NCBI GenBank assembly: GCA_045545475.1
Contig: JAZQAZ010000008.1
Span: forward strand, 32,001-96,000
Length of the DNA: 64,000 nucleotides
Direction of reading: 5' to 3'
DNA from: Clostridia bacterium
Lineage (GTDB): Bacteria; Bacillota; Clostridia; CAKSNL01; HGM11501
Below the pieces are notes generated by a model. The model was not told where the DNA came from, made no database searches, and worked only from the letters and a program-made list of their open reading frames with translations. Position numbers and translations under genes: made by a program. The stretch's first letter is position 1, and each line of letters opens with the position of its first letter. Below, in pieces: positions 35,815 through 46,007 of this stretch.

Positions 35815-36741
35815 TTAATCGAACATTTCGCTTGAAAGATAACGCTCGCCGGTATCTGGAAGCAAAACAACAATGGTTTTACCATCGTTTTCAGGACGCT
35901 TTGCAAGGGTGAGAGCCGCAAACAAAGCAGCTCCGGAGGATATACCCGATAAAACGCCTTCTTTTTTAGAAAGGAAGTTTCCCATTTCATAAGCCTCTTC
36001 GGTTTTCACGGTTATTACTTCGTCGTAAATGCTTTTGTCAAGTGTATTTGGAATGAAATTTGCACCGATTCCCTGAATTTTATGAGGGCCGGCTTTTCCT
36101 TCTGATAAAAGAGGGGAGTCAGTAGGCTCTACGGCCACTACTTTAATGGTGGGATTTTTTTCCTTAAGGTATCTTCCGGTTCCGCTTAAAGTTCCGCCGG
36201 TACCTACGGCAGAAACAAAGATATCAACTTTACCTTCGGTATCTGTATAAATTTCCGGTCCTGTTGTACGGTAATGAGCATCGGGATTTGCCTTGTTTTC
36301 AAATTGCGAAGGGATAAAACTTCCTTCTATTTCCTTTGCGAGTTCCTCTGCTTTTTCGATGGCACCTTTCATGCCTTTTCCGCCATCGGTAAGATAAAGT
36401 TCTGCCCCGTAGGCTTTTAATAAATTCCGGCGTTCTATACTCATGGTGTCCGGCATGGTTAATATTACTCTGTAGCCTTTAACCGAACCAAGGCAGGCAA
36501 GCCCTACACCAGTGTTTCCGCTGGTGGGTTCAATTATAACTGAACCTTCCTTTAATAAACCTCTTTCCTCGGCATCTTTAATCATTGAAAGAGCAACTCT
36601 GTCCTTTGCACTTCCTGCAGGATTGAATGATTCAAGCTTTGCGAGAACTTTTGATTTAAGGGAATACTCCTTCTCGAGACGAGTAAGCTCCAAAAGAGGC
36701 GTTTTTCCGATTAACCCTTCGATTGTTTGATAAATATTCAT
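35815..36741 (-). CDS. cysK: Cysteine synthase A
   Basis: KLESFNPAGSAKDR, EPTSGNTG, GTGGT, PHKIQGIG, LPDTGERYLS. Confidence 0.95.
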   Translation of the reverse strand: MNIYQTIEGLIGKTPLLELTRLEKEYSLKSKVLAKLESFNPAGSAKDRVALSMIKDAEERGLLKEGSVIIEPTSGNTGVGLACLGSVKGYRVILTMPDTMSIERRNLLKAYGAELYLTDGGKGMKGAIEKAEELAKEIEGSFIPSQFENKANPDAHYRTTGPEIYTDTEGKVDIFVSAVGTGGTLSGTGRYLKEKNPTIKVVAVEPTDSPLLSEGKAGPHKIQGIGANFIPNTLDKSIYDEVITVKTEEAYEMGNFLSKKEGVLSGISSGAALFAALTLAKRPENDGKTIVVLLPDTGERYLSSEMFD

Positions 36742-36772
36742 AAAATTACCTCCTTAAGATGTGTACTTTTAA

Positions 36773-36801
36773 AGTTTATCACTTAAAAATTTCTTTGTCA
36801 A
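36773..36801 (-). promoter_or_regulatory. sigma-A promoter of cysK
   Basis: Minus strand TTGACA-17-TAAACT with TG extension. Confidence 0.65.
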
Positions 36802-36868
36802 TTGCATTTTGTGGCAAAATTGCACAAAGTACATGCCGTTGCAATGGCAATATTGGCAAATATGCCGA

Positions 36869-36897
36869 TTGAAAGGATGACGCAATTATTGTATAAT
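36869..36897 (+). promoter_or_regulatory. sigma-A promoter of the aro operon leader
   Basis: TTGAAA-17-TATAAT. Confidence 0.7.
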
Positions 36898-36926
36898 TAT
36901 ACGAAATATGAAAGGGGATGCCGCAA

Positions 36927-37094
36927 ATGACTAAAATGATGAGAAAATCAGGTAAAAGTGCGGTATCTTTATGCGAAAATGCTGTTAAAGACACTTTTTT
37001 TGAAGTGTCTTTTTTTGCATGCTTCCGATTTTTTTACTACTATTATTTTATGAACAATATGTGCCGAAAAGTTAAAACTGCTGTAATGGTTTAA
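36927..37094 (+). CDS. Putative Phe/Tyr-rich leader peptide (55 aa), not in the ORF track
   Basis: Hand translation MTKMMRKSGKSAVSLCENAVKDTFFEVSFFACFRFFYYYYFMNNMCRKVKTAVMV*; SD-like aaagggg at 36911-36917; 8 Phe and 4 Tyr in 18 codons. Confidence 0.75.
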   Translation: MTKMMRKSGKSAVSLCENAVKDTFFEVSFFACFRFFYYYYFMNNMCRKVKTAVMV

Positions 37095-37145
37095 TTAAAG
37101 TTATTTCAGCGTTTTCGCTTTTCGGCGGAAACGCTTTTATATTTT
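37063..37145 (+). promoter_or_regulatory. Attenuator: alternative antiterminator (37063-37126) and terminator (37108-37145)
   Basis: gccgaaaag (37063-71) is the exact complement of cttttcggc (37118-26); terminator agcgttttcgc/gcggaaacgct followed by tttatatttt. Confidence 0.7.
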
Positions 37146-37163
37146 CTGAAAGGTTTTGATACG

Positions 37164-38270
37164 ATGAATAAGCTTGATATTGCGAGAAACGAGATTAATG
37201 AAATAGATAAGGAAATGGCATCCCTCTTCGAAAGAAGAATGAAGGCAGCTAAAATGGTAGCTGAATATAAAAAGGAAAACGCACTTCCTATTTTTGATTC
37301 GGGAAGAGAAGCTTTTCTGATAGATAGAAACTCTTCATATATAGAGGATGCGGTGCTTAAGGATTACTATGTTGAATTTATAAAAAGCACTATGGATATT
37401 TCAAAATCCTATCAGAGAAGGCTGCTTGACGGTATGCGGGTAGCGTATTCGGGAGTTCCGGGGGCTTTTGCCCATATTGCGGCAAATAAAATTTTCGACA
37501 GTGCAAACCCGATTGCTTATGACAGCTTTAAGTCAGCGTACGAAGCTGTTGAAAAAGGCGAATGTGACTGTGCGGTGCTTCCCATCGAAAACAGCTATGC
37601 AGGCGACGTTGCTCAGGTTATGGATATAGCATTTTTCGGATCCCTTCATATAACAGGGATATATGATCTTGAGGTAAGCCATAATCTCCTTGCTAAAAAA
37701 GGCACAAACAAAGGCGATGTTAAAAAAATAATAAGCCATTCTCAGGCATTAAGCCAGTGTGCAGGATATATTGAAAAGAATAATCTTTTAAAGGAAGAAG
37801 CTACAAATACAGCGGTTGCGGCAAAGACGGTTGCGGAATCTTGCGATAATACTCTTGCGGCAATAGCAAGCAAGGAAGCGGCATCTCTTTACGGCCTTAC
37901 GGTAATTGAAGAAAATATTAATCAGAGTGCCAACAATACCACACGTTTTGCTGTGTTTTCAAGAAGCACCGGTAAAGAAAATAAGGGTAATAATCATTTC
38001 GTATTTTTCTTTACGGTTAAAAACGAGGCAGGTGCCCTCGGTAAGGCAATTTCAGTAATCGGAAAATATGGATTTAACTTAAAGGCGTTAAAGAGCCGTC
38101 CCACAAAAGAGCTTATCTGGGATTATTATTTCTTTGCAGAAGGCGAAGGCGAAATTAACGGAGAAAACGGAGATAAGATGCTTTCCGAGCTTAAAGAAAG
38201 TTGTAATGAAATTAAGGTTGTGGGAAGCTTTGCCAATGAAATCCTGTTAAGAGAGAAGGATAATAAATGA
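37164..38270 (+). CDS. pheA: Bifunctional chorismate mutase / prephenate dehydratase with ACT domain
   Basis: ARNEINEIDKEM..FERRM (chorismate mutase); VAYSGVPGAF, LPIENS, SHSQALSQC, NTTRF, KSRP. Confidence 0.9.
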   Translation: MNKLDIARNEINEIDKEMASLFERRMKAAKMVAEYKKENALPIFDSGREAFLIDRNSSYIEDAVLKDYYVEFIKSTMDISKSYQRRLLDGMRVAYSGVPGAFAHIAANKIFDSANPIAYDSFKSAYEAVEKGECDCAVLPIENSYAGDVAQVMDIAFFGSLHITGIYDLEVSHNLLAKKGTNKGDVKKIISHSQALSQCAGYIEKNNLLKEEATNTAVAAKTVAESCDNTLAAIASKEAASLYGLTVIEENINQSANNTTRFAVFSRSTGKENKGNNHFVFFFTVKNEAGALGKAISVIGKYGFNLKALKSRPTKELIWDYYFFAEGEGEINGENGDKMLSELKESCNEIKVVGSFANEILLREKDNK

Positions 38271-39271
38271 GTCTTTATATGAATCTCGGAAAAGACAGTT
38301 ATGATATAATTATAGAACGCGGAGCCTTAGCTAAGGCTGGTGAATATTTTGATCTGGACAGAAAAGTACTTGTTGTAACCGACTCAGGCGTTCCCGAAGA
38401 ATATGCAAAAACTGTTGCAGAAAAGGCAAAGGATGGCTATATTGTTACATTTCCCCAGGGTGAAGAAAATAAAAACTTTGAAACCTACAAAACCGTTTTA
38501 AGTGCTCTTACGGAAAATGGCTTTACGAGAACAGACTGCGTTGTTGCGGTAGGCGGCGGAGTTGTGGGAGATTTAGCGGGCTTTGCAGCTGCAAGCTACA
38601 TGCGAGGAATTGATTTTTACAACATCCCCACAACCGTGCTTTCTCAGATTGATTCTTCAATCGGCGGTAAAACTGCTATTGATTTTTACGGATACAAAAA
38701 TATAATCGGAGCATTTCATCAGCCGAAAAAGGTTATAATCGACGCCGATGTAACAAAAACCCTTACGAAAAGACAAATCGTATCGGGACTTGCAGAAGCC
38801 GTTAAAATGGCAGTTACAAGCGATAAGGAACTTTTCTCTATTTTTGAAAACGGCGACTATGAAGAGCGTTTTGATGAAATAATCGAAAAATCCCTTATGA
38901 TTAAAAAAGCGGTGGTCGAAGAGGATGTGGATGAAAAGGGGCTTCGTAAGGTTCTTAATTTCGGTCACACAATAGGCCACGCCATAGAATCAAATGCGGG
39001 ACTCGGAAGTCTTTATCACGGCGAATGTGTCGCACTCGGAATGCTTTATATGGCGGATAAAGAAGCGAGAGAAAGAATATTTAATGTGCTTAAAAAGCTT
39101 GGACTTCCCACAAAGGCAGAGTTTGATAAGGACGAAATAATAAATACAATAAAGCACGACAAAAAAGCATCGGGAGACAAGATTACGGTTATTTACGTTA
39201 AAGAAATCGGAAGCTTTGAAATGAGAAAAATTGATATATCTGAGCTTTACGGATATATAAATGAGGTTTGA
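38267..39271 (+). CDS. aroB: 3-dehydroquinate synthase
   Basis: GGGVVGDLAGF, YMRGI, PTTVLSQIDSSIGGKT, LNFGHTIGHAIE. Confidence 0.95.
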   Translation: MSLYMNLGKDSYDIIIERGALAKAGEYFDLDRKVLVVTDSGVPEEYAKTVAEKAKDGYIVTFPQGEENKNFETYKTVLSALTENGFTRTDCVVAVGGGVVGDLAGFAAASYMRGIDFYNIPTTVLSQIDSSIGGKTAIDFYGYKNIIGAFHQPKKVIIDADVTKTLTKRQIVSGLAEAVKMAVTSDKELFSIFENGDYEERFDEIIEKSLMIKKAVVEEDVDEKGLRKVLNFGHTIGHAIESNAGLGSLYHGECVALGMLYMADKEARERIFNVLKKLGLPTKAEFDKDEIINTIKHDKKASGDKITVIYVKEIGSFEMRKIDISELYGYINEV

Positions 39272-39273
39272 TT

Positions 39274-40365
39274 ATGAAAAATACATTTGGTGATAACATA
39301 ACCCTTACGGTTTTCGGAGAAAGCCACGGAAGTGCCATAGGCGTTATCATTGACGGTCTTGCCCCGGGAATTAGCGTTGACGAGGAAAAAATAGCGTATA
39401 AGCTTCTTTTAAGGAGACCTTCAGGCGGTATTTCCACATCAAGGGTTGAAGCGGATAGATTTAAGATTGAAAGCGGAGTGTACGAGGGAAAGACAACCGG
39501 AACACCCGTTACAATTATAATTCCCAACGAAAACACAAAAAGCGGTGATTATAAGGCAACGGAAAACCTTGCAAGACCTGCCCACGCCGATTACACGGCT
39601 TATATGAAATATCACGGCTTTGAGGACAGACGTGGCGGCGGTCACTTCAGCGGAAGAATAACCGCAGGGATTGTTGCGGCAGGTGCAATTTTTATAAGTG
39701 CCCTTGAAAACAAAGGTATATATATCGGAACTCATATGAAAAAGTGTGCAGGAGTTTCGGACAGAGAATTTTCTGATCTTACAGAAGACGTTAAAAAGCT
39801 CGTGAATATGCGTTTTCCCGTTTTATCAGAGGAAGCAGGAAGCTTAATGCAGGAAAAAATCATGCAGGCAAGAGAAGATAAGGACAGCGTCGGCGGAATA
39901 CTGGAAACGGCAATCATCGGCGTTCCCGCAGGCCTTGGAGAGCCTTATTTTGACAGCATCGAAAGTAAAATTTCCCACGCCATGTTTTCAATCGGCGGAG
40001 TTAAAGGCATCGAATTCGGAAAAGGCTTTGCTCTTTCGGATATGACGGGAAGCGAGGCAAACGATGCCTTCAGAATGGATAATGGCGTTGTTATAACAGA
40101 AACCAACAACAACGGCGGAATAAACGGCGGTATTACAAACGGAATGCCCATTTTATTCTCACTTGCCGTAAAGCCTACACCTTCCATATTCAGAGTGCAG
40201 AAAACTGTGGACTTCGTAAAAGGCGAGGACGCGGAGATTGAACTTAAGGGCAGGCACGATCCTTGTATCGTCCACAGAGCAAAAAGCGTAGCAGATGCAC
40301 TTTCAGCATTTGTCATTGCCGATGTACTTACGGGACGCTACGGAACGGACTATCTGGCAGATTAA
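39274..40365 (+). CDS. aroC: Chorismate synthase
   Basis: FGESHG, RPAHAD, RGGGHFSGR, NNNGGINGGITNG, KPTPSI, GRHDPC. Confidence 0.95.
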   Translation: MKNTFGDNITLTVFGESHGSAIGVIIDGLAPGISVDEEKIAYKLLLRRPSGGISTSRVEADRFKIESGVYEGKTTGTPVTIIIPNENTKSGDYKATENLARPAHADYTAYMKYHGFEDRRGGGHFSGRITAGIVAAGAIFISALENKGIYIGTHMKKCAGVSDREFSDLTEDVKKLVNMRFPVLSEEAGSLMQEKIMQAREDKDSVGGILETAIIGVPAGLGEPYFDSIESKISHAMFSIGGVKGIEFGKGFALSDMTGSEANDAFRMDNGVVITETNNNGGINGGITNGMPILFSLAVKPTPSIFRVQKTVDFVKGEDAEIELKGRHDPCIVHRAKSVADALSAFVIADVLTGRYGTDYLAD

Positions 40366-40379
40366 TTTGGAGGAAGAAA

Positions 40380-41615
40380 ATGCAGTACGGTTGTATAGGT
40401 GAAAAGCTTGGTCACAGCTTTTCAAAGGAAATTCACGGTAAAATTGCCGATTATGAATACGAACTTAAGGAGCTTAAAAGGGAAGATGTTGCTTCCTTTA
40501 TAATGGGACGATGCTATAAAGCCCTTAATGTTACTATTCCTTATAAAGAGGTGGTAATCCCTCATCTTGACGAAATTGACCAGGCGGCAAGAAAAATCGG
40601 TGCGGTAAACACAATAGTAAATAAAGAAGGCAGACTATACGGATATAATACGGATTTTTACGGTATGATGGAACTACTTTCTTATATCGGTGTAGCTCTC
40701 GAAAATAAAAAGGTGCTGATACTCGGTACCGGCGGCACAAGCAGAACAGCTTATGCATTAGCTGAACACCTTAAGGCAAGAGAAATTATAAAGGTATCAC
40801 GAAGCGAAAAGGACGGAGCTGTAAGCTATGAGGCGGCATATCGCAATCACTATGATGCAGAAGTCATAATAAATACAACGCCCTCGGGAATGTACCCAAA
40901 TTCTGAGGAGGCTCCAATTTCACTTGATACATTTACAAAGCTTGAAGGCGTAATTGATGCAATTTATAACCCCTTAAGAAGTAATCTTATATCAGAAGCG
41001 TTAAGGCGAGGAATAAAGGCATCCGGCGGGCTCTATATGCTGGTTGCCCAGGCTGTTTTGGCATCAGAATATTTCCTTGATACCAAATATCCTGAATCGC
41101 TTTTGAACGAGGTCTATAAAGATATACTTTCTGAAAAAGAAAACATCGTTCTTGTGGGAATGCCGGGGGCAGGCAAAACCACAATCGGTAAAATACTTGC
41201 TGAAAATCTAGGTAAAACCTTTATGGATTCCGATGATGAAATAAAAAAGAGCGGGAAGACGCCCGATGAAATAATTAAAAGCCGTGGTGAAGCGGCATTC
41301 AGGGATATTGAGGCGGAAACTATAAAAAATCTTTCCGATAAAAACGGTCTTGTCATAGCAACAGGCGGCGGAGCGGTATTAAGAGAAGAAAATATAAAAA
41401 GACTTAAAAGAAACGGAAAAATCGTTTTCCTTGACAGAGATTTAGCTGATATTCTTCCAACTCCTGACAGACCCTTATCCCAAAACAGAGAGCTTCTTAA
41501 AAAGCGCTATGATGAACGTTTACCCATTTATACTTCTGTTTCGGATGTTGAAGTAAAAATCGGAAACGATGCAAATGAAAATGCAGAAAATATTATAAAA
41601 ATGCTTAGAGGTTAA
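40380..41615 (+). CDS. aroE: Shikimate dehydrogenase - shikimate kinase fusion (AroE-AroK)
   Basis: LGHSFS, NVTIPYK, GAVNT, NTDFYG, GTGG; then VGMPGAGKTT, GEAAFRDIE, ATGGG; ATG at 40380 after ggagg. Confidence 0.9.
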   Translation: MQYGCIGEKLGHSFSKEIHGKIADYEYELKELKREDVASFIMGRCYKALNVTIPYKEVVIPHLDEIDQAARKIGAVNTIVNKEGRLYGYNTDFYGMMELLSYIGVALENKKVLILGTGGTSRTAYALAEHLKAREIIKVSRSEKDGAVSYEAAYRNHYDAEVIINTTPSGMYPNSEEAPISLDTFTKLEGVIDAIYNPLRSNLISEALRRGIKASGGLYMLVAQAVLASEYFLDTKYPESLLNEVYKDILSEKENIVLVGMPGAGKTTIGKILAENLGKTFMDSDDEIKKSGKTPDEIIKSRGEAAFRDIEAETIKNLSDKNGLVIATGGGAVLREENIKRLKRNGKIVFLDRDLADILPTPDRPLSQNRELLKKRYDERLPIYTSVSDVEVKIGNDANENAENIIKMLRG

Positions 41616-41619
41616 AGCT

Positions 41620-42069
41620 ATGAAAATACTTGTAATTAACGGCCCCAACTTAAATATGCTGGGAATAAGAGAACCTGATATTTACGGAAAATCCACCTAT
41701 AAGGATCTAACCGATATGATAGAAGATTACTGCAAGGAAAAGAATGTAGAGGTTAAGTGCTATCAGTCAAACCATGAGGGGGCACTGGTTGACGAAATCC
41801 AGTCAGCCTACGGCTCAAAGGACGGAATTGTAATAAACCCCGGTGCTTACACCCATACAAGTGTGGCGTTGCTTGATGCCCTAAAGGCAGTCGGCATTCC
41901 TGCAGTTGAAGTGCACATCTCAAAGGTTGACGAAAGAGAGGACTTCAGACAGATAAGCTATATAAGAAACTACTGCGAAAAAACCATAACCGGCCTTGGC
42001 TTTGACGGATATATAAAGGCAATTGAGTATTTAATTGAAAGGGACGGTAAAAATGATAGCGGAAATTAA
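41620..42069 (+). CDS. aroQ: Type II 3-dehydroquinate dehydratase
   Basis: INGPNLNMLGIREPDIYG, QSNHEG, NPGAYTHTS, EVHIS. Confidence 0.95.
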   Translation: MKILVINGPNLNMLGIREPDIYGKSTYKDLTDMIEDYCKEKNVEVKCYQSNHEGALVDEIQSAYGSKDGIVINPGAYTHTSVALLDALKAVGIPAVEVHISKVDEREDFRQISYIRNYCEKTITGLGFDGYIKAIEYLIERDGKNDSGN

Positions 42070-43252
42070 AAAAGGAGCTTTATCCGGAACGGTTAAAGCA
42101 CCGCCATCAAAAAGTATGGCACACCGCCTGATAATTTCTGCGGCACTGTCAGAGGGAGAAAGCAGGATAAGCAATGTCGCACTATCTGAGGATATAAAAG
42201 CCACAATCGGATGTATGGAAGTCCTGGGTAAAACGGCGATTTACAATGACGGAGTGCTTACCGTTAAGGATGCGGAAATTCCTTCGGGCGATAAAAAACT
42301 TTTCGTAAACGAAAGCGGAAGTACGCTTCGGTTTTTCACCCCCCTTTGTCTGACCGGCGATGAGGTCACATTATACGGAAGCGAAAGGCTTTTTGAAAGA
42401 CCGCTTGCCGTATATGAAGAAATTTTTGAGCGTCAGGGAATCTTCTTTGAAAAGGGAAAGGGTTACTTAAAGCTCAAGGGCAAGCTTGAGGGCGGAAGCT
42501 ATGAAATAAGAGGCGATATAAGCAGCCAGTTTATAACAGGGTTACTTTTTGCATTGCCGATACTTTCCGGCGACAGCGAAATTAAAATAACCGGTAAATT
42601 TGAAAGCAAAAGCTATATTTTAATGACGCTTTCGGCACTAAAAACTTTTGGTATAGACATTTATTTTGACGGCGACAGAGTCTTTAGGATAAAAGGCGGA
42701 CAAAGCTATAAAAGCTGTGATGCCGAAGTTGAAGGGGACTGGTCAAACGCGGCATTTTTCGAAGCCTTAAATTACCTTGAAAGTAATGTATTTGTCATGG
42801 GAGTTGACGAAAATTCACTTCAAGGCGATAAAATATGTAAAAAGTATTTTGAAGATATAAAAAACGGTAAAAAGGAATTGTCCTTAGCTGATTGCCCCGA
42901 CCTTGCACCCATACTTTTCACCGTAGCGGCATACCTTGGCGGAGCAGAATTTACCGATACCGCAAGACTTAAGATAAAAGAGTCTGACAGAGCGGAGGTT
43001 ATGAAGGAGGAGCTTTCAAAGTTCGGAGCGGAAATTTTAGTTTTTGAGAATTCCGTAACGGTTAAAAAGAGTGACCTTCATTCGCCAAGTGCTCCCTTAA
43101 ACAGCCATAATGACCACAGAATTGCAATGAGTCTGGCGGTTTTATCCACCGTTTACGGCGGCATAATCGAGGATGCGGGAGCGGTAAAAAAGAGTATGCC
43201 TGACTTTTATGAAAAGCTTGCAGCATTAGGAGCAAAGGTGGAATTGAAATGA
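42053..43252 (+). CDS. aroA: EPSP synthase
   Basis: PPSKSMAHR, NESGSTLRF, SSQFITGLL, RLKIKESDR, NDHRIAMS. Confidence 0.93.
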   Translation: MIAEIKKGALSGTVKAPPSKSMAHRLIISAALSEGESRISNVALSEDIKATIGCMEVLGKTAIYNDGVLTVKDAEIPSGDKKLFVNESGSTLRFFTPLCLTGDEVTLYGSERLFERPLAVYEEIFERQGIFFEKGKGYLKLKGKLEGGSYEIRGDISSQFITGLLFALPILSGDSEIKITGKFESKSYILMTLSALKTFGIDIYFDGDRVFRIKGGQSYKSCDAEVEGDWSNAAFFEALNYLESNVFVMGVDENSLQGDKICKKYFEDIKNGKKELSLADCPDLAPILFTVAAYLGGAEFTDTARLKIKESDRAEVMKEELSKFGAEILVFENSVTVKKSDLHSPSAPLNSHNDHRIAMSLAVLSTVYGGIIEDAGAVKKSMPDFYEKLAALGAKVELK

Positions 43253-44106
43253 TAGTAGACGTAAGTAAAAAAATACTGATAGTGGGACTCGGTCTTCTTG
43301 GCGGAAGCTATGCAAGGGTACTAAAAAGATTCGGGTTTCATATTTCGGCAATAACGAAGGAGCAAAGCTCCATCGATTATGCCCTTAATGAAGGGATGAT
43401 TGATGAAGGAACAACTCACCTTGACGAAAGAATAATAGGCGAGGCTGACCTTGTGATATTTGCCCTTTATCCCCATGTATTTATTGAATGGATAGAAAAA
43501 AATCAGAAGCTTTTAAAAAGCGGAGCGACTATAACGGACGTAACCGGTGTAAAGAGAAGCATCGTTTATAAAATTCAGGATATGCTTCGTGACGATGTTG
43601 AGTTTATAGCTGCACATCCTATGGCGGGGCGTGAAGTGTCTGGCGTTGAAAACAGCACCGATAAAATGTTTGCTGGAGCAAACTATATCGTTACGCCTAC
43701 GGATAAGAACAGCCCTGAGGCAATTAACACCTGTCTTGAGCTCGGAAGGCTTTTAGGCTTTTCCAACGTAACAACTCTAAGCCCAGAAGAACACGATGAA
43801 ATGATAGGCTTCCTTTCCCAGCTTACACATTGTATCGCAATCACACTTATGACCTGCAACGATAAAGAGGATATGGAAAAATTCACGGGTGACTCCTTCA
43901 GGGATTTAACCAGAATTGCCCGCATCAATGACCTTATGTGGAGCGAGCTTTTTTTAGCAAACAAAGATGCTCTTCTTTCCCAGATGGATATGTTTATAAA
44001 TAAATTCAATGAGCTTAAAACAATGCTTGAAACTGAGGATATTGACGCTATGAGAGAAATGATGCGTCATTCCACAAGCCGCAGAGCATTATTTGACAAA
44101 AAATAA
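43249..44106 (+). CDS. tyrA: Prephenate dehydrogenase
   Basis: VGLGLLGGS, TDVTGVK, HPMAGRE, EEHDEMI, SFRDLTRIA. Confidence 0.92.
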   Translation: MIVDVSKKILIVGLGLLGGSYARVLKRFGFHISAITKEQSSIDYALNEGMIDEGTTHLDERIIGEADLVIFALYPHVFIEWIEKNQKLLKSGATITDVTGVKRSIVYKIQDMLRDDVEFIAAHPMAGREVSGVENSTDKMFAGANYIVTPTDKNSPEAINTCLELGRLLGFSNVTTLSPEEHDEMIGFLSQLTHCIAITLMTCNDKEDMEKFTGDSFRDLTRIARINDLMWSELFLANKDALLSQMDMFINKFNELKTMLETEDIDAMREMMRHSTSRRALFDKK

Positions 44107-44133
44107 AACACAATTTGAAAGGACGTATTTATT

Positions 44134-45165
44134 ATGAAAAACATGAACTTCTTAAGAAAATTACCCATTCCTATGGATATAAAGGCACAGTACCCCATAA
44201 CTCCCGAAATGGAGAAAATCAAAGCTGACAGAGACGAGGAAATTAAAAAGGTTTTCACAGGCGAATCCGATAAATTCATTCTTGTAATCGGTCCCTGCTC
44301 TGCGGATGATAAAACCGCAGTTATGGATTATATCGGAAGACTTAAAAGGGTGGAGGAGCAGGTTAAGGATAAAATCATAATCATCCCCAGAATTTACACA
44401 AACAAGCCCAGAACAACAGGAAGCGGCTATAAGGGAATGCTTCATCAGCCCAATCCCGAGGAAAAGCCCGATATGCTTAAGGGTATCGTTGCAATAAGAG
44501 ATATCCATATGACGGCGTTAAAGGACTATGGCTTCTCCTGTGCGGATGAAATGCTTTATCCTGCAAACTACCGTTACCTTTCTGACCTTCTTGCATATGT
44601 TGCAATCGGTGCACGTTCCGTTGAAAATCAGGAACACAGACTTGCCTCCAGCGGATTTGACGTTCCCGTTGGTATGAAAAACCCCACAGAGGGTGACTTC
44701 TCTATTATGATGAATGCAATAAATGCCGCACAGCACGGCCATACCTTCATCTACAGAGGATGGGAAGTTGAGACAGCAGGTAACCCCCTTGCACACGCAA
44801 TACTCAGAGGCTATATGGATAACTACGGAAGAAGTCTTCCCAACTATCACTATGAAGACCTTGAAAGACTTGACGAAGCATATAAGAAGGACGGTCTTTT
44901 AAATCCTGCGGTTATTGTTGATACAAACCACGCAAACTCCGGCAAGAAATATCTTGAGCAGATTCGTATTGCAAAGGACGTTTTATACAGCTGTTCAAAG
45001 AATTCCGACATCAAGAAGCTTGTTAAGGGCCTAATGATTGAAAGCTATATTGAAGACGGTGCACAGAAGATTGGAGAAAACGTTTACGGTAAGTCTATTA
45101 CAGACCCCTGCCTCGGTTGGGAAAAGACCGAAAAGCTCATCTTAGACCTTGCAGACGAGCTTTAA
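44134..45165 (+). CDS. aroF: DAHP synthase (class I-alpha)
   Basis: IGPCS, KPRTT, AIGARS, VGMKN, ILRG, DTNHANS, GKSITDPC. Confidence 0.92.
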   Translation: MKNMNFLRKLPIPMDIKAQYPITPEMEKIKADRDEEIKKVFTGESDKFILVIGPCSADDKTAVMDYIGRLKRVEEQVKDKIIIIPRIYTNKPRTTGSGYKGMLHQPNPEEKPDMLKGIVAIRDIHMTALKDYGFSCADEMLYPANYRYLSDLLAYVAIGARSVENQEHRLASSGFDVPVGMKNPTEGDFSIMMNAINAAQHGHTFIYRGWEVETAGNPLAHAILRGYMDNYGRSLPNYHYEDLERLDEAYKKDGLLNPAVIVDTNHANSGKKYLEQIRIAKDVLYSCSKNSDIKKLVKGLMIESYIEDGAQKIGENVYGKSITDPCLGWEKTEKLILDLADEL

Positions 45166-45172
45166 TATGCAT

Positions 45173-45201
45173 AAAACGACAGGCATTGTCTGTCGTTTTT
45201 T
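45173..45201 (+). terminator. Terminator of the aro operon
   Basis: aaaacgacaggc-att-gtctgtcgtttttt. Confidence 0.85.
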
Positions 45202-45308: not shown

Positions 45309-46007
45309 ATGGAAATAAAAGAAATTCTAAGAGAAACATATTTGAAATATGGAGACACTCTATTTTTAGATAATAAGAAATTAATAGGGAATATTCGAGA
45401 TTTGCTTTCTGATTATCCGTCTGAGGTTAAAAAGATTGCTTTGATTATAAATGAAAATATAGTATCAAAGATAATAAAAGAGGTGGATGCTAATACTATA
45501 GAAAGAAACATGATTTATGCTCAAATGCTTGTTGATAATTACTCAATGGATTACGAAGTAGCGCGAAGATTTATCGGTTACTTTATTTATGCTACAAAAG
45601 GTATAGATTGTGTGCAAAATACCGGAAAATATCCTAAAGCAAGCAATACTGATCAAGCGGCAAAAGATAAACTGAAAACGCCATGCAGCAATGCAATGGA
45701 CATAGCTATGCAGAAAGAAGATATAAGTTATGATTCCGGATATGCAGAACTTCCAATCGAGATTGTATTTTCTATTTTCGGAAGAGGTGTTGTTATTGCT
45801 GGCAAGATTTCAAAAGGGAAAATATCAATCGGAGATGAATTGACTATTGGTTACCGTAAATGTGTTGTATCGGCCATAGAAAAAAACGGAAAGCTTATAG
45901 AAAATGCGACGCATGAAGATGGTGAAATAGGTCTACTCATAAAAAATATTAAAAAAGCTGATGTGAAAATAGGTATGGTAGCTAAAAAAAAATATATGAA
46001 ATTTTAA
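45309..46007 (+). CDS. Hypothetical protein: helical N-terminal domain plus C-terminal EF-Tu domain-II-like beta-barrel
   Basis: LPIEIVFSIFGRGVVIAGKISKGKISIGDEL..VSAIE..EIGLLIKNI..VKIGMV resembles EF-Tu PIEDVFSI.GRGTV.TGR..RG...VGDEV; RBS ggagg; visibly AT-rich. Confidence 0.6.
   Translation: MEIKEILRETYLKYGDTLFLDNKKLIGNIRDLLSDYPSEVKKIALIINENIVSKIIKEVDANTIERNMIYAQMLVDNYSMDYEVARRFIGYFIYATKGIDCVQNTGKYPKASNTDQAAKDKLKTPCSNAMDIAMQKEDISYDSGYAELPIEIVFSIFGRGVVIAGKISKGKISIGDELTIGYRKCVVSAIEKNGKLIENATHEDGEIGLLIKNIKKADVKIGMVAKKKYMKF

Follow-up and report, generated by a model that had tools for sequence, protein, structure and literature searches.

A probable Phe/Tyr-gauging leader-peptide attenuator upstream of the aromatic amino acid operon of an uncultured Clostridia bacterium

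How is an operon that encodes the whole common aromatic pathway controlled in a member of Clostridia in which no T-box precedes it? In Firmicutes the usual control of aromatic biosynthesis is described as depending on T-boxes or on the trp RNA-binding attenuation protein (TRAP). Here, we analysed a 64,000-nt stretch of a Clostridia bacterium genome (contig JAZQAZ010000008.1, positions 32,001 to 96,000 of the forward strand; hereafter the window), in which a leader region at 36869-37163 stands directly before the genes running from pheA to a 3-deoxy-D-arabino-heptulosonate 7-phosphate (DAHP) synthase gene. An initial annotation, made from the letters alone, had proposed that the leader senses phenylalanine and tyrosine through a translating ribosome. 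We consider it likely that this leader is indeed a ribosome-mediated transcription attenuator which gauges charged tRNA-Phe together with charged tRNA-Tyr and controls the eight-gene pheA-aro-tyrA-DAHP synthase operon. The support for this reading is comparative in kind and comes from a leader open reading frame (ORF) conserved in six of six orthologous leaders, from folds computed with a ribosome in place, and from independent analogues before the same genes elsewhere.

The features of a leader-peptide attenuator are present here, namely a Shine-Dalgarno (SD) sequence with a start codon, codons for the end products, a terminator with a mutually exclusive antiterminator, and the corresponding geometry; what is missing is the classical 1:2 helix (Table 1). 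The promoter, the SD, the ORF and its eight Phe and four Tyr codons within a stretch of 18 (codons 24-41, FFEVSFFACFRFFYYYYF, 36996-37049) all lie where the initial annotation had placed them, and transcription would begin near 36905. ATG 36927 is the likelier start of the ORF, since the alternative in-frame ATG at 36918 directly abuts the SD. The proposed terminator and antiterminator were located as well, including the spacing between the antiterminator and the control codons. The antiterminator joins GCCGAAAAG to CUUUUCGGC, AAAAC to GUUUU and GCUG to CAGC. Its 5' arm lies inside the ORF, with 13 nt between it and the last Phe codon (37047-37049), the stop codon stands at its apical loop, and its 3' arm contains the 5' arm of the terminator; the two structures share 37108-37126. 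All the elements listed by the initial annotation are thus present, and two conserved hairpins which it had omitted have to be added. The first, P1, pairs the SD-AUG spacer (GAUGCCGCA, the 5' arm) with codons 11-14 (UGCGGUAUC, the 3' arm). The second, hairpin A, forms 11 pairs (-11.9 kcal/mol, or -19.0 kcal/mol in an extended form), with Phe codons 24-25 in its loop and Phe codons 29-30 in its U tract.

Table 1. Positions in the window of the leader elements, of the operon behind them and of the site that follows the operon (MFE, minimum free energy).
Feature	Positions	Strand	Details
Sigma-A-type promoter, TTGAAA (-35), 17-nt spacer, TATAAT (-10)	36869..36897	+	11/12 consensus matches
SD of the leader ORF, AAAGGGG (GGAG in relatives)	36911..36917	+	9 nt ahead of ATG 36927
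Hairpin P1	36917..36967	+	-16.8 kcal/mol; 7/9 outer pairs invariant
Leader ORF, 55 codons and stop, MTKMMRKSGKSAVSLCENAVKDTFFEVSFFACFRFFYYYYFMNNMCRKVKTAVMV	36927..37094	+	ATG 36927, TAA 37092-37094
Hairpin A, terminator-like, within the ORF	36987..37016	+	stem-loop 36987-37012, U7 tract 37010-37016
Main control run, codons 33-41, F R F F Y Y Y Y F	37023..37049	+	codon class kept in relatives
Antiterminator hairpin	37063..37126	+	-25.3 kcal/mol; MFE fold
Intrinsic terminator, stem 37108-37119/37124-37135, loop UUUC, U-rich tail 37136-37145	37108..37145	+	12 pairs, 6 G-C, -16.6 kcal/mol
SD of pheA, GAAAGG	37148..37153	+	
pheA (CM-PDT-ACT), aroB, aroC, aroE-aroK fusion, aroQ, aroA, tyrA, DAHP synthase gene	37164..45165	+	eight tightly packed genes
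Terminator-like site just past the last operon gene	45174..45198		script scan

Folding of the 264-nt leader gave -75.6 kcal/mol (z = -5.18), and none of 200 shuffles was equally stable. The unmasked RNA adopts the antiterminator, and the same result was obtained when a ribosome footprint was placed with codon 37 or codon 41 in the A site. With the footprint moved to the stop codon (37077-37106 masked), the terminator formed instead. A ribosome can reach the stop codon, which stands at the tip of the antiterminator, only after opening the entire 5' arm. In the MFE folds the first 10 nt that the transcript would have (AAUAUGAAAG, 36905-36914) also pair with the U-rich tail of the terminator (CUUUUAUAUU, 37133-37142), a pairing which may be due to chance.

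We propose that a ribosome would load at the SD and at AUG 36927 and translate the 55-codon ORF. Hairpin A with its U7 tract (36987-37016) would pause or abort RNA polymerase until this ribosome comes and melts the hairpin, and such a wait would synchronise ribosome and polymerase directly ahead of the main Phe/Tyr run, in a lineage in which they might not be coupled by other means, and prevent unlicensed read-through. The ribosome would then read the 12 aromatic codons. If either charged tRNA were scarce, it would stall at least 13 nt upstream of 37063, the segment 37063-37126 would fold as the antiterminator and hold the 5' arm of the terminator, and polymerase would read through into pheA. 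If both were plentiful, the ribosome would pass the 5' arm of the antiterminator and reach the stop codon; with the antiterminator blocked in this way, the terminator stem (37108-37135) and its U tail would form and transcription would end.

Is the leader conserved in the way this scheme predicts? PheA relatives were found in 55 of the 61 genomes searched. The order concerned is small and made up of uncultured Clostridia; leader DNA was present in six of its 14 genomes, all from one genus, and the relatives are metagenome-assembled genomes (MAGs) from faecal, goat colon and rumen samples. With the genome of the window (G000) as the reference, PheA is 97% identical in G010, 86% in G004, 72% in G009 and 70% in G007. 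In two genus members without the leader (G005, G008) pheA lies behind another coding sequence, and two more (G001, G011) gave no PheA match; in G003 and G006 pheA is broken at contig ends. A leader-peptide profile run against 400 genomes of the class recovered those six only. Four additional weak matches in the class sample were antisense or coding artefacts on inspection, as were all the weak matches within the order (E from 0.001 to 0.9). The exact 20-mer of the terminator matched 12 times in 185,579 species genomes; five of the matches are the known relatives, and the other seven are chance matches in coding or unrelated sequence.

In all six orthologous leaders the ORF is open in the same frame and both SD and AUG are kept, the sole indels being of 3 nt near the ORF end, and the leader adjoins pheA in each of the six loci with DNA available. 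A conserved Phe/Tyr-rich upstream ORF (uORF) in related upstream regions, as the initial annotation had predicted, is therefore in place. The -35 and -10 hexamers do not vary across the six aligned leaders. A short, conserved inverted repeat, TGGCA-N4-TGCCG at 36845-36875, overlaps the -35 region; its ATGCCGATTGAAA is invariant in the six leaders, and a protein might bind the repeat as an operator and so add a second layer of control.

In the control run, the four distinct sequences of codons 36-41 show at least seven base changes, and 7/7 preserve a TTY or TAY codon (Phe to Tyr, TAC to TAT, TTC to TTT). Only two of the nine possible single changes of such a codon keep its class, and seven in a row would be expected by chance about 3 times in 100,000. 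Selection thus acts on the class of the codon, which is the expected mark of control codons. A leader variant of 95% identity, seen in DNA contigs from three of four sequencing runs, carries 19 differences over 411 nt, all of them outside hairpin A, the Phe/Tyr run and the terminator, and one is a synonymous Arg change at 37026.

The structured parts of the leader were then compared with G000 in G010, G004, G009 and G007. Hairpin A with U7 keeps 30-33 of 33 bases, the terminator with its tail 39-41 of 41, the 5' arm of the antiterminator 16-21 of 22, and the block of the P1 3' arm (36960-36975) 14-16 of 16. The corresponding values are 11-24 of 30 for the N-terminal codons 2-11, 7-19 of 20 for the apical part of the antiterminator, and 5 of 12 for codons 42-45 in each of three distant species; the pheA coding DNA is 73-89% identical overall and 51-72% at third positions. 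The RNA elements are held tighter than the neighbouring coding sequence. Hairpin A is paired in 100% of cells, with three one-sided changes compatible through wobble pairs, and the outer and middle pairs of the antiterminator are retained with three one-sided compatible changes. All the changes in its 5' arm (U to C, C to U, A to G) preserve a standard pair, and no change occurs in its 3' arm, which has to serve the two folds alike.

Such conservation calls for another explanation to be considered, namely that a structured leader RNA is switched by an RNA-binding protein, an uncharged tRNA or a metabolite, and that T-rich sequence accounts for an incidental ORF. In DNA, hardly any position of P1, hairpin A or the terminator varies, third codon positions included, which suggests constraint on RNA and not on peptide, and the fold is, as given above, much more stable than shuffles. 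The leader also contains two similar and nearly invariant modules, GUAUCUUUAUGC (36959-36975) and GUGUCUUUUUUUGC (37002-37019), in each of which the 3' arm of a hairpin leads into a run rich in U and then UGC; these are not accounted for by the simple attenuation model and could be repeated binding sites. Frames dense in aromatic codons arise by chance as well: 21 of the 102,146 stop-to-stop frames in the six frames of the 2.74-Mb genome reach eight Phe/Tyr in 10 codons, so that density alone is not unique, and it is the position that is. Among 1,902 small ORFs of the same genome which have an SD-like motif, lie outside larger frames and stand at most 250 nt upstream of a gene, the leader ORF has the highest aromatic density and is the sole one with eight aromatic codons in 10, the next three having seven; of these three, the one inspected proved an artefact.

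On the other side, no known RNA family was recognised. An Rfam scan of the window returned no family at the gathering score, the T-box (RF00230) included, and at E <= 10 the region 36700-37250 gave no leader family except an unrelated L10_leader (E = 0.71). The same T-box model finds seven sites elsewhere in the genome, and the claim of the initial annotation that the leader has no T-box thus holds. Amino-acid leader families, such as Phe_leader, do exist in Rfam. On 40 related loci the search found nothing apart from one thiamine pyrophosphate (TPP) riboswitch and one T-box. Furthermore, an incidental ORF is at odds with a Phe/Tyr run that conserves codon class only and with an SD, an AUG and an open frame that are kept throughout.

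A further argument comes from leaders unrelated to that of the window. We fetched 80 metagenome loci encoding PheA relatives, scanned them together with the genome loci, and counted the 21 loci of the nearest PheA clade (48-56% identity; L068-L085, L111, G023 and G057). An aromatic-rich uORF followed by a terminator stands before pheA, or before DAHP synthase-pheA, in seven of the 21 (L070, L072, which is cut by the contig end, L075, L076, L085, L111 and G057). One locus (L077, 110.4 bits) has a T-box instead, seven have neither uORF nor T-box with upstream sequence present, and six were not judgeable. The uORF peptides are unrelated in sequence (MLNKKIYNRFYYYHHCGLSAFAKIG, MSSSRMFNSTFWFYFYYLPL; MNQIIRKNAAHGFFGFTQVCFFAGYYFIAPEIARA from GC-rich DNA). 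The uORFs and terminators that lie directly before pheA are at 3303-3380 of L075, 3159-3305 of L076, 3180-3242 of L085, 605-712 of L111 and 1-168 of L072. The uORF of L085 has an additional Trp codon (FWFYFYY), that of L075 has two His codons after FYYY, and in L111 the U tail of the terminator is able to pair with the SD of pheA. L077 has the same type of operon, and its T-box (1283-1534) precedes DAHP synthase-pheA with no leader peptide; T-box and leader-peptide sensors thus seem to replace each other within one PheA clade. Three more loci gave doubtful or false candidates: the Phe/Tyr-rich ORFs in L136 and L138 are the antisense of a gene, and L137 has a possible Phe/Tyr uORF with no SD.

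Two of the seven loci led to a second leader family, M..NKF[F/Y]run..KGCP, which precedes DAHP synthase-pheA and is unrelated to the leader of the window. It occurs twice in tandem in G057 (L066, 2015-2086 and 2197-2268) and in L070 (1546-1623 and 1751-1825). Its profile matched seven of the 400 sampled class genomes at E <= 0.01; four of these matches, from four families, were genuine on inspection, and the other three were antisense or coding artefacts. Each genuine copy stands before a DAHP synthase gene, the further loci being L174, L175 and L176 (in G155, G256 and G352). In the consensus fold of seven copies, GGGCUG.CCG, just past the Phe/Tyr run, pairs with CGG.CAGUCC, which overlaps the 5' arm of the terminator. 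This helix has nine pairs in 7/7 copies with one compensatory change; it encloses a covarying hairpin with the stop codon in the loop region of that hairpin. By its predicted fold the second family has the same layout as the leader of the window, built from unrelated sequence. Since the same design recurs from unrelated sequence, and since Phe/Tyr-rich uORFs precede the same genes even in a GC-rich leader (L111), an ORF that is merely incidental is improbable, and we regard a protein-, tRNA- or metabolite-operated RNA switch as an unlikely explanation of this locus.

Could the peptide itself be the sensor? Besides the six DNA loci, a search of public protein collections (1.84 billion) gave five representatives at E <= 0.001, and the called homologues of the leader peptide are P0002-P0007. 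All the relatives retain VSLC, SFFA and an aromatic run of varied make-up (FFYYYFF, YYFYYYF, YYYYY). In P0003, P0005, P0006 and P0007 the composition of the Phe/Tyr run changes and both termini differ. P0003 and P0005 (48 residues) are shorter and end in ...HSEK and ...HSGK. These endings correspond to the antiterminator arm CCGAAAAGUAA read in another frame, and hence the stop codon of the two short forms may lie on the arm itself.

As peptides such as TnaC arrest the ribosome in concert with a free amino acid, here Trp, one may suppose that VSLC...TFFxVSFFAxF acts as an arrest sequence in the exit tunnel, with stalling set by free Phe/Tyr or by the general capacity for translation. With 48-66 residues the peptides could occupy the tunnel over its full length. 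Eight peptides, down to 39% identity, agree in residues 13-16 and 27-31, which would be inside the tunnel when the ribosome reads codons 37-41. However, in the leaders known as DNA, the residues that are conserved fall on RNA helices and U tracts in which third positions do not vary either, and there is no need to invoke selection on the peptide. Analogous leaders that are shorter (20-25 residues) manage without such a motif, and an arrest caused by abundant Phe/Tyr would turn the operon on when it is not needed. An arrest peptide is thus decidedly unlikely in our estimation.

The same homologues might also be taken for ordinary small hydrophobic proteins, with a leaky terminator behind the gene and pheA expressed by constitutive read-through. 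Indeed, gene callers annotated the ORF in public assemblies (P0002-P0007), and the peptide is hydrophobic and of the length given above. Against this stand the termini, which vary freely (two relatives have a different C-terminal sequence), the conserved competing partner of the terminator 5' arm, and the constant association of the family with pheA. Moreover, only 18 nt separate the tail of the terminator from the pheA ATG; this leaves no space for a separate pheA promoter, so that transcription of the operon has to start at the leader promoter and pass a conditional terminator. We find a plain protein gene with a leaky terminator very improbable.

Several results weigh against ribosome-mediated attenuation as proposed here, or at least against its simplest form. 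The initial annotation had suggested a test for covarying stems in related leaders. Inside the genus the covariation does not reach significance, as 112 to 378 of 500 shuffles equal or exceed the values observed, and a compensatory double change is absent from every key helix of the six leaders. The structures therefore rest on conservation and on one-sided compatible changes. Its expectation that masking would switch the fold was borne out for the Phe/Tyr stall and for the 37077-37106 mask; with a narrower mask at the stop codon (37080-37104) the MFE structure retains the outer 10-pair helix of the antiterminator. Termination at the stop codon would accordingly also require that this helix is unable to close around the ribosome, which is a reasonable assumption. 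Among the analogous leaders, seven of eight keep the terminator in every state of simple masked MFE folds, L075 being the only one with an antiterminator. A leader of 55 codons is unusually long, and the near-invariance of P1 and of CUUUAUGC behind it is not required by the simple model. With regard to the genome as a whole, a crude scan revealed no other amino-acid leader peptide, and the genome uses T-boxes, including those of pheS (86.5 bits) and of a trpB-like gene (68.9 bits), both below the family cut-off.

The comparison with E. coli pheL and trpL that the initial annotation had drawn is likewise sound in part. The positions of stall and stop agree; a 1:2 helix was not found, as no upstream segment pairs with 37063-37085 in folds of the leader, and the antiterminator is the default fold. 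In the absence of an anti-antiterminator helix the untranslated RNA would adopt the read-through form, and the switch would leak unless hairpin A worked. Hairpin A may supply a pause, but it is no anti-antiterminator.

Hairpin A is probably a site of pausing or of translation licensing. In B. subtilis the polymerase outruns the ribosomes (PMC13323073), and in the tlrB (yxjB) leader of that species a NusG-dependent pause at a hairpin with a T-rich tract, which was mistaken for a terminator in Term-seq, synchronises the two (PMC6851288). Both leaders have a hairpin followed by a T-rich tract; in tlrB the hold on polymerase lets the ribosome on the leader ORF choose between terminator and read-through, and hairpin A would act likewise. 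The tlrB leader is, however, induced by an antibiotic, has nine codons, and pauses polymerase downstream of the ORF, whereas hairpin A lies inside the ORF. It is conceivable, although we would not bet on it, that the leader is a two-checkpoint attenuator suited to a lineage in which polymerase outruns ribosomes, with hairpin A as a translation-licensed first checkpoint and the stop-codon-tipped antiterminator as the second. If this were true, a coding 5' arm and a stop codon within the antiterminator, which recur in the unrelated Phe/Tyr family, would represent a general route by which Firmicutes attenuate aromatic operons without the enterobacterial 1:2 helix.

How does the leader relate to known attenuators? 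The E. coli pheL peptide has about 15 codons and Phe as the only control amino acid. Both pheL and pheST leaders work by leader-peptide attenuation (PMC11802643; for pheL-pheA also PMC3082878). Like pheL, the leader described here places a small ORF with Phe codons before pheA and has a terminator with a competing antiterminator, such that a stalled ribosome would favour read-through. Unlike pheL, it has 55 codons with eight Phe and four Tyr, lacks the 1:2 helix, forms the antiterminator by default, contains a terminator-like hairpin within the ORF, and precedes the whole common pathway and tyrA; the two share no relation in sequence or in Rfam. In Corynebacterium glutamicum the leader peptide aroR, first noted in PMC4046766, carries Phe-Tyr-Phe before aroF and is reported to respond to limitation of Phe and not of Tyr (Neshat et al. 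2014, via PMC11802643). Both aroR and our leader put Phe and Tyr codons before an aromatic operon of a Gram-positive bacterium. The actinobacterial aroR, however, has three control codons where the window has twelve, and its architecture is different and unrelated; Tyr supply was reported as immaterial for aroR, whereas four to five consecutive Tyr codons are found here and tyrA belongs to the operon.

Multivalent leader peptides are familiar from the enterobacterial thr and ilv operons. These resemble the present leader in that one peptide has codons for at least two amino acids served by the operon, and differ in the amino acids, in the phylum and in the RNA layout. Within Firmicutes, leader-peptide attenuators for His have been predicted in Peptostreptococcaceae, Lutispora, Erysipelotrichales and the B. 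cereus group (PMC9413887), and the ilv leader peptide Rli60 of Listeria was tested by mutation (PMC5864092). They show leader-peptide attenuation of transcription in amino-acid operons of Firmicutes, Clostridia included, but they are short and serve other amino acids, and the accessible portions of those two papers describe none for aromatic operons. A further description is that of the uORFC-13-1 motif, with a Phe-coding U run in a uORF before aroF of Acholeplasma and environmental sequences (Brewer et al. 2021, PMC8632094). It too is a Phe-coding uORF that a terminator follows directly and that lies ahead of a DAHP synthase gene; as described, it has at least one Phe codon and no Tyr run.

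The novelty claimed by the initial annotation was therefore too strong, given that aroR (PMC11802643) and the predicted His leaders of Clostridia (PMC9413887) are published. A Phe/Tyr leader peptide in Clostridia was not found in our literature search, in which most subscription journals were beyond reach, and its absence from the literature is thus unproven. The switch mechanism is classical; what is new is the narrowly distributed family and its layout.

Several consequences follow if the attenuator works as proposed. A single leader peptide seems to sense two amino acids at once and to govern the common pathway as a whole along with the Phe and Tyr branches. Taken with the second family, this suggests that ribosome-sensed attenuation of aro genes is recurring and under-annotated in gut and rumen Clostridia and alternates with T-boxes in close relatives. 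Since such uORFs are missed by gene callers and by Rfam, the regulation of operons in such MAGs is mis-annotated. Hairpin A with its U7 tract offers a testable idea of how a switch could be kept synchronised where transcription and translation are loosely coupled.

As the initial annotation had stated, the leader precedes an operon that runs from pheA to tyrA and a DAHP synthase gene. The eight genes (37164-45165) encode, in order, chorismate mutase/prephenate dehydratase with an ACT domain (CM-PDT-ACT), 3-dehydroquinate synthase, chorismate synthase, shikimate dehydrogenase/shikimate kinase, type II dehydroquinase, 5-enolpyruvylshikimate-3-phosphate (EPSP) synthase, prephenate dehydrogenase and DAHP synthase. 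The fourth is an aroE-aroK fusion, in which shikimate dehydrogenase (N-terminal domain) and shikimate kinase share one frame (40263-41615). Beyond the operon, an ORF of 232 residues (45309-46007) gave a weak match to EF-Tu domain 2 only (E = 7.7e-5, below the Pfam cut-off). On the other strand upstream lie a gene for a pyridoxal phosphate (PLP)-dependent, cysK-like enzyme and an NlpA/ATP-binding cassette (ABC) transporter of the methionine type.

No paralogous leader was found in the genome, where the leader gave short chance matches only. A Trp-rich leader candidate on contig C48 proved to be the last part of a frame for a membrane protein that precedes a DegV-like gene (a name read from the sequence). 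The seven T-box matches of the genome lie on contigs C47, C9, C41, C6 and C34 (loci L039-L045), and four of them score above the family cut-off. They precede a leuA-like gene, a sodium:solute symporter gene, a gene for a helix-turn-helix (HTH)-cupin-AMP-binding protein, thrS, pheS, the gene of a trpB-like PLP enzyme, and ileS.

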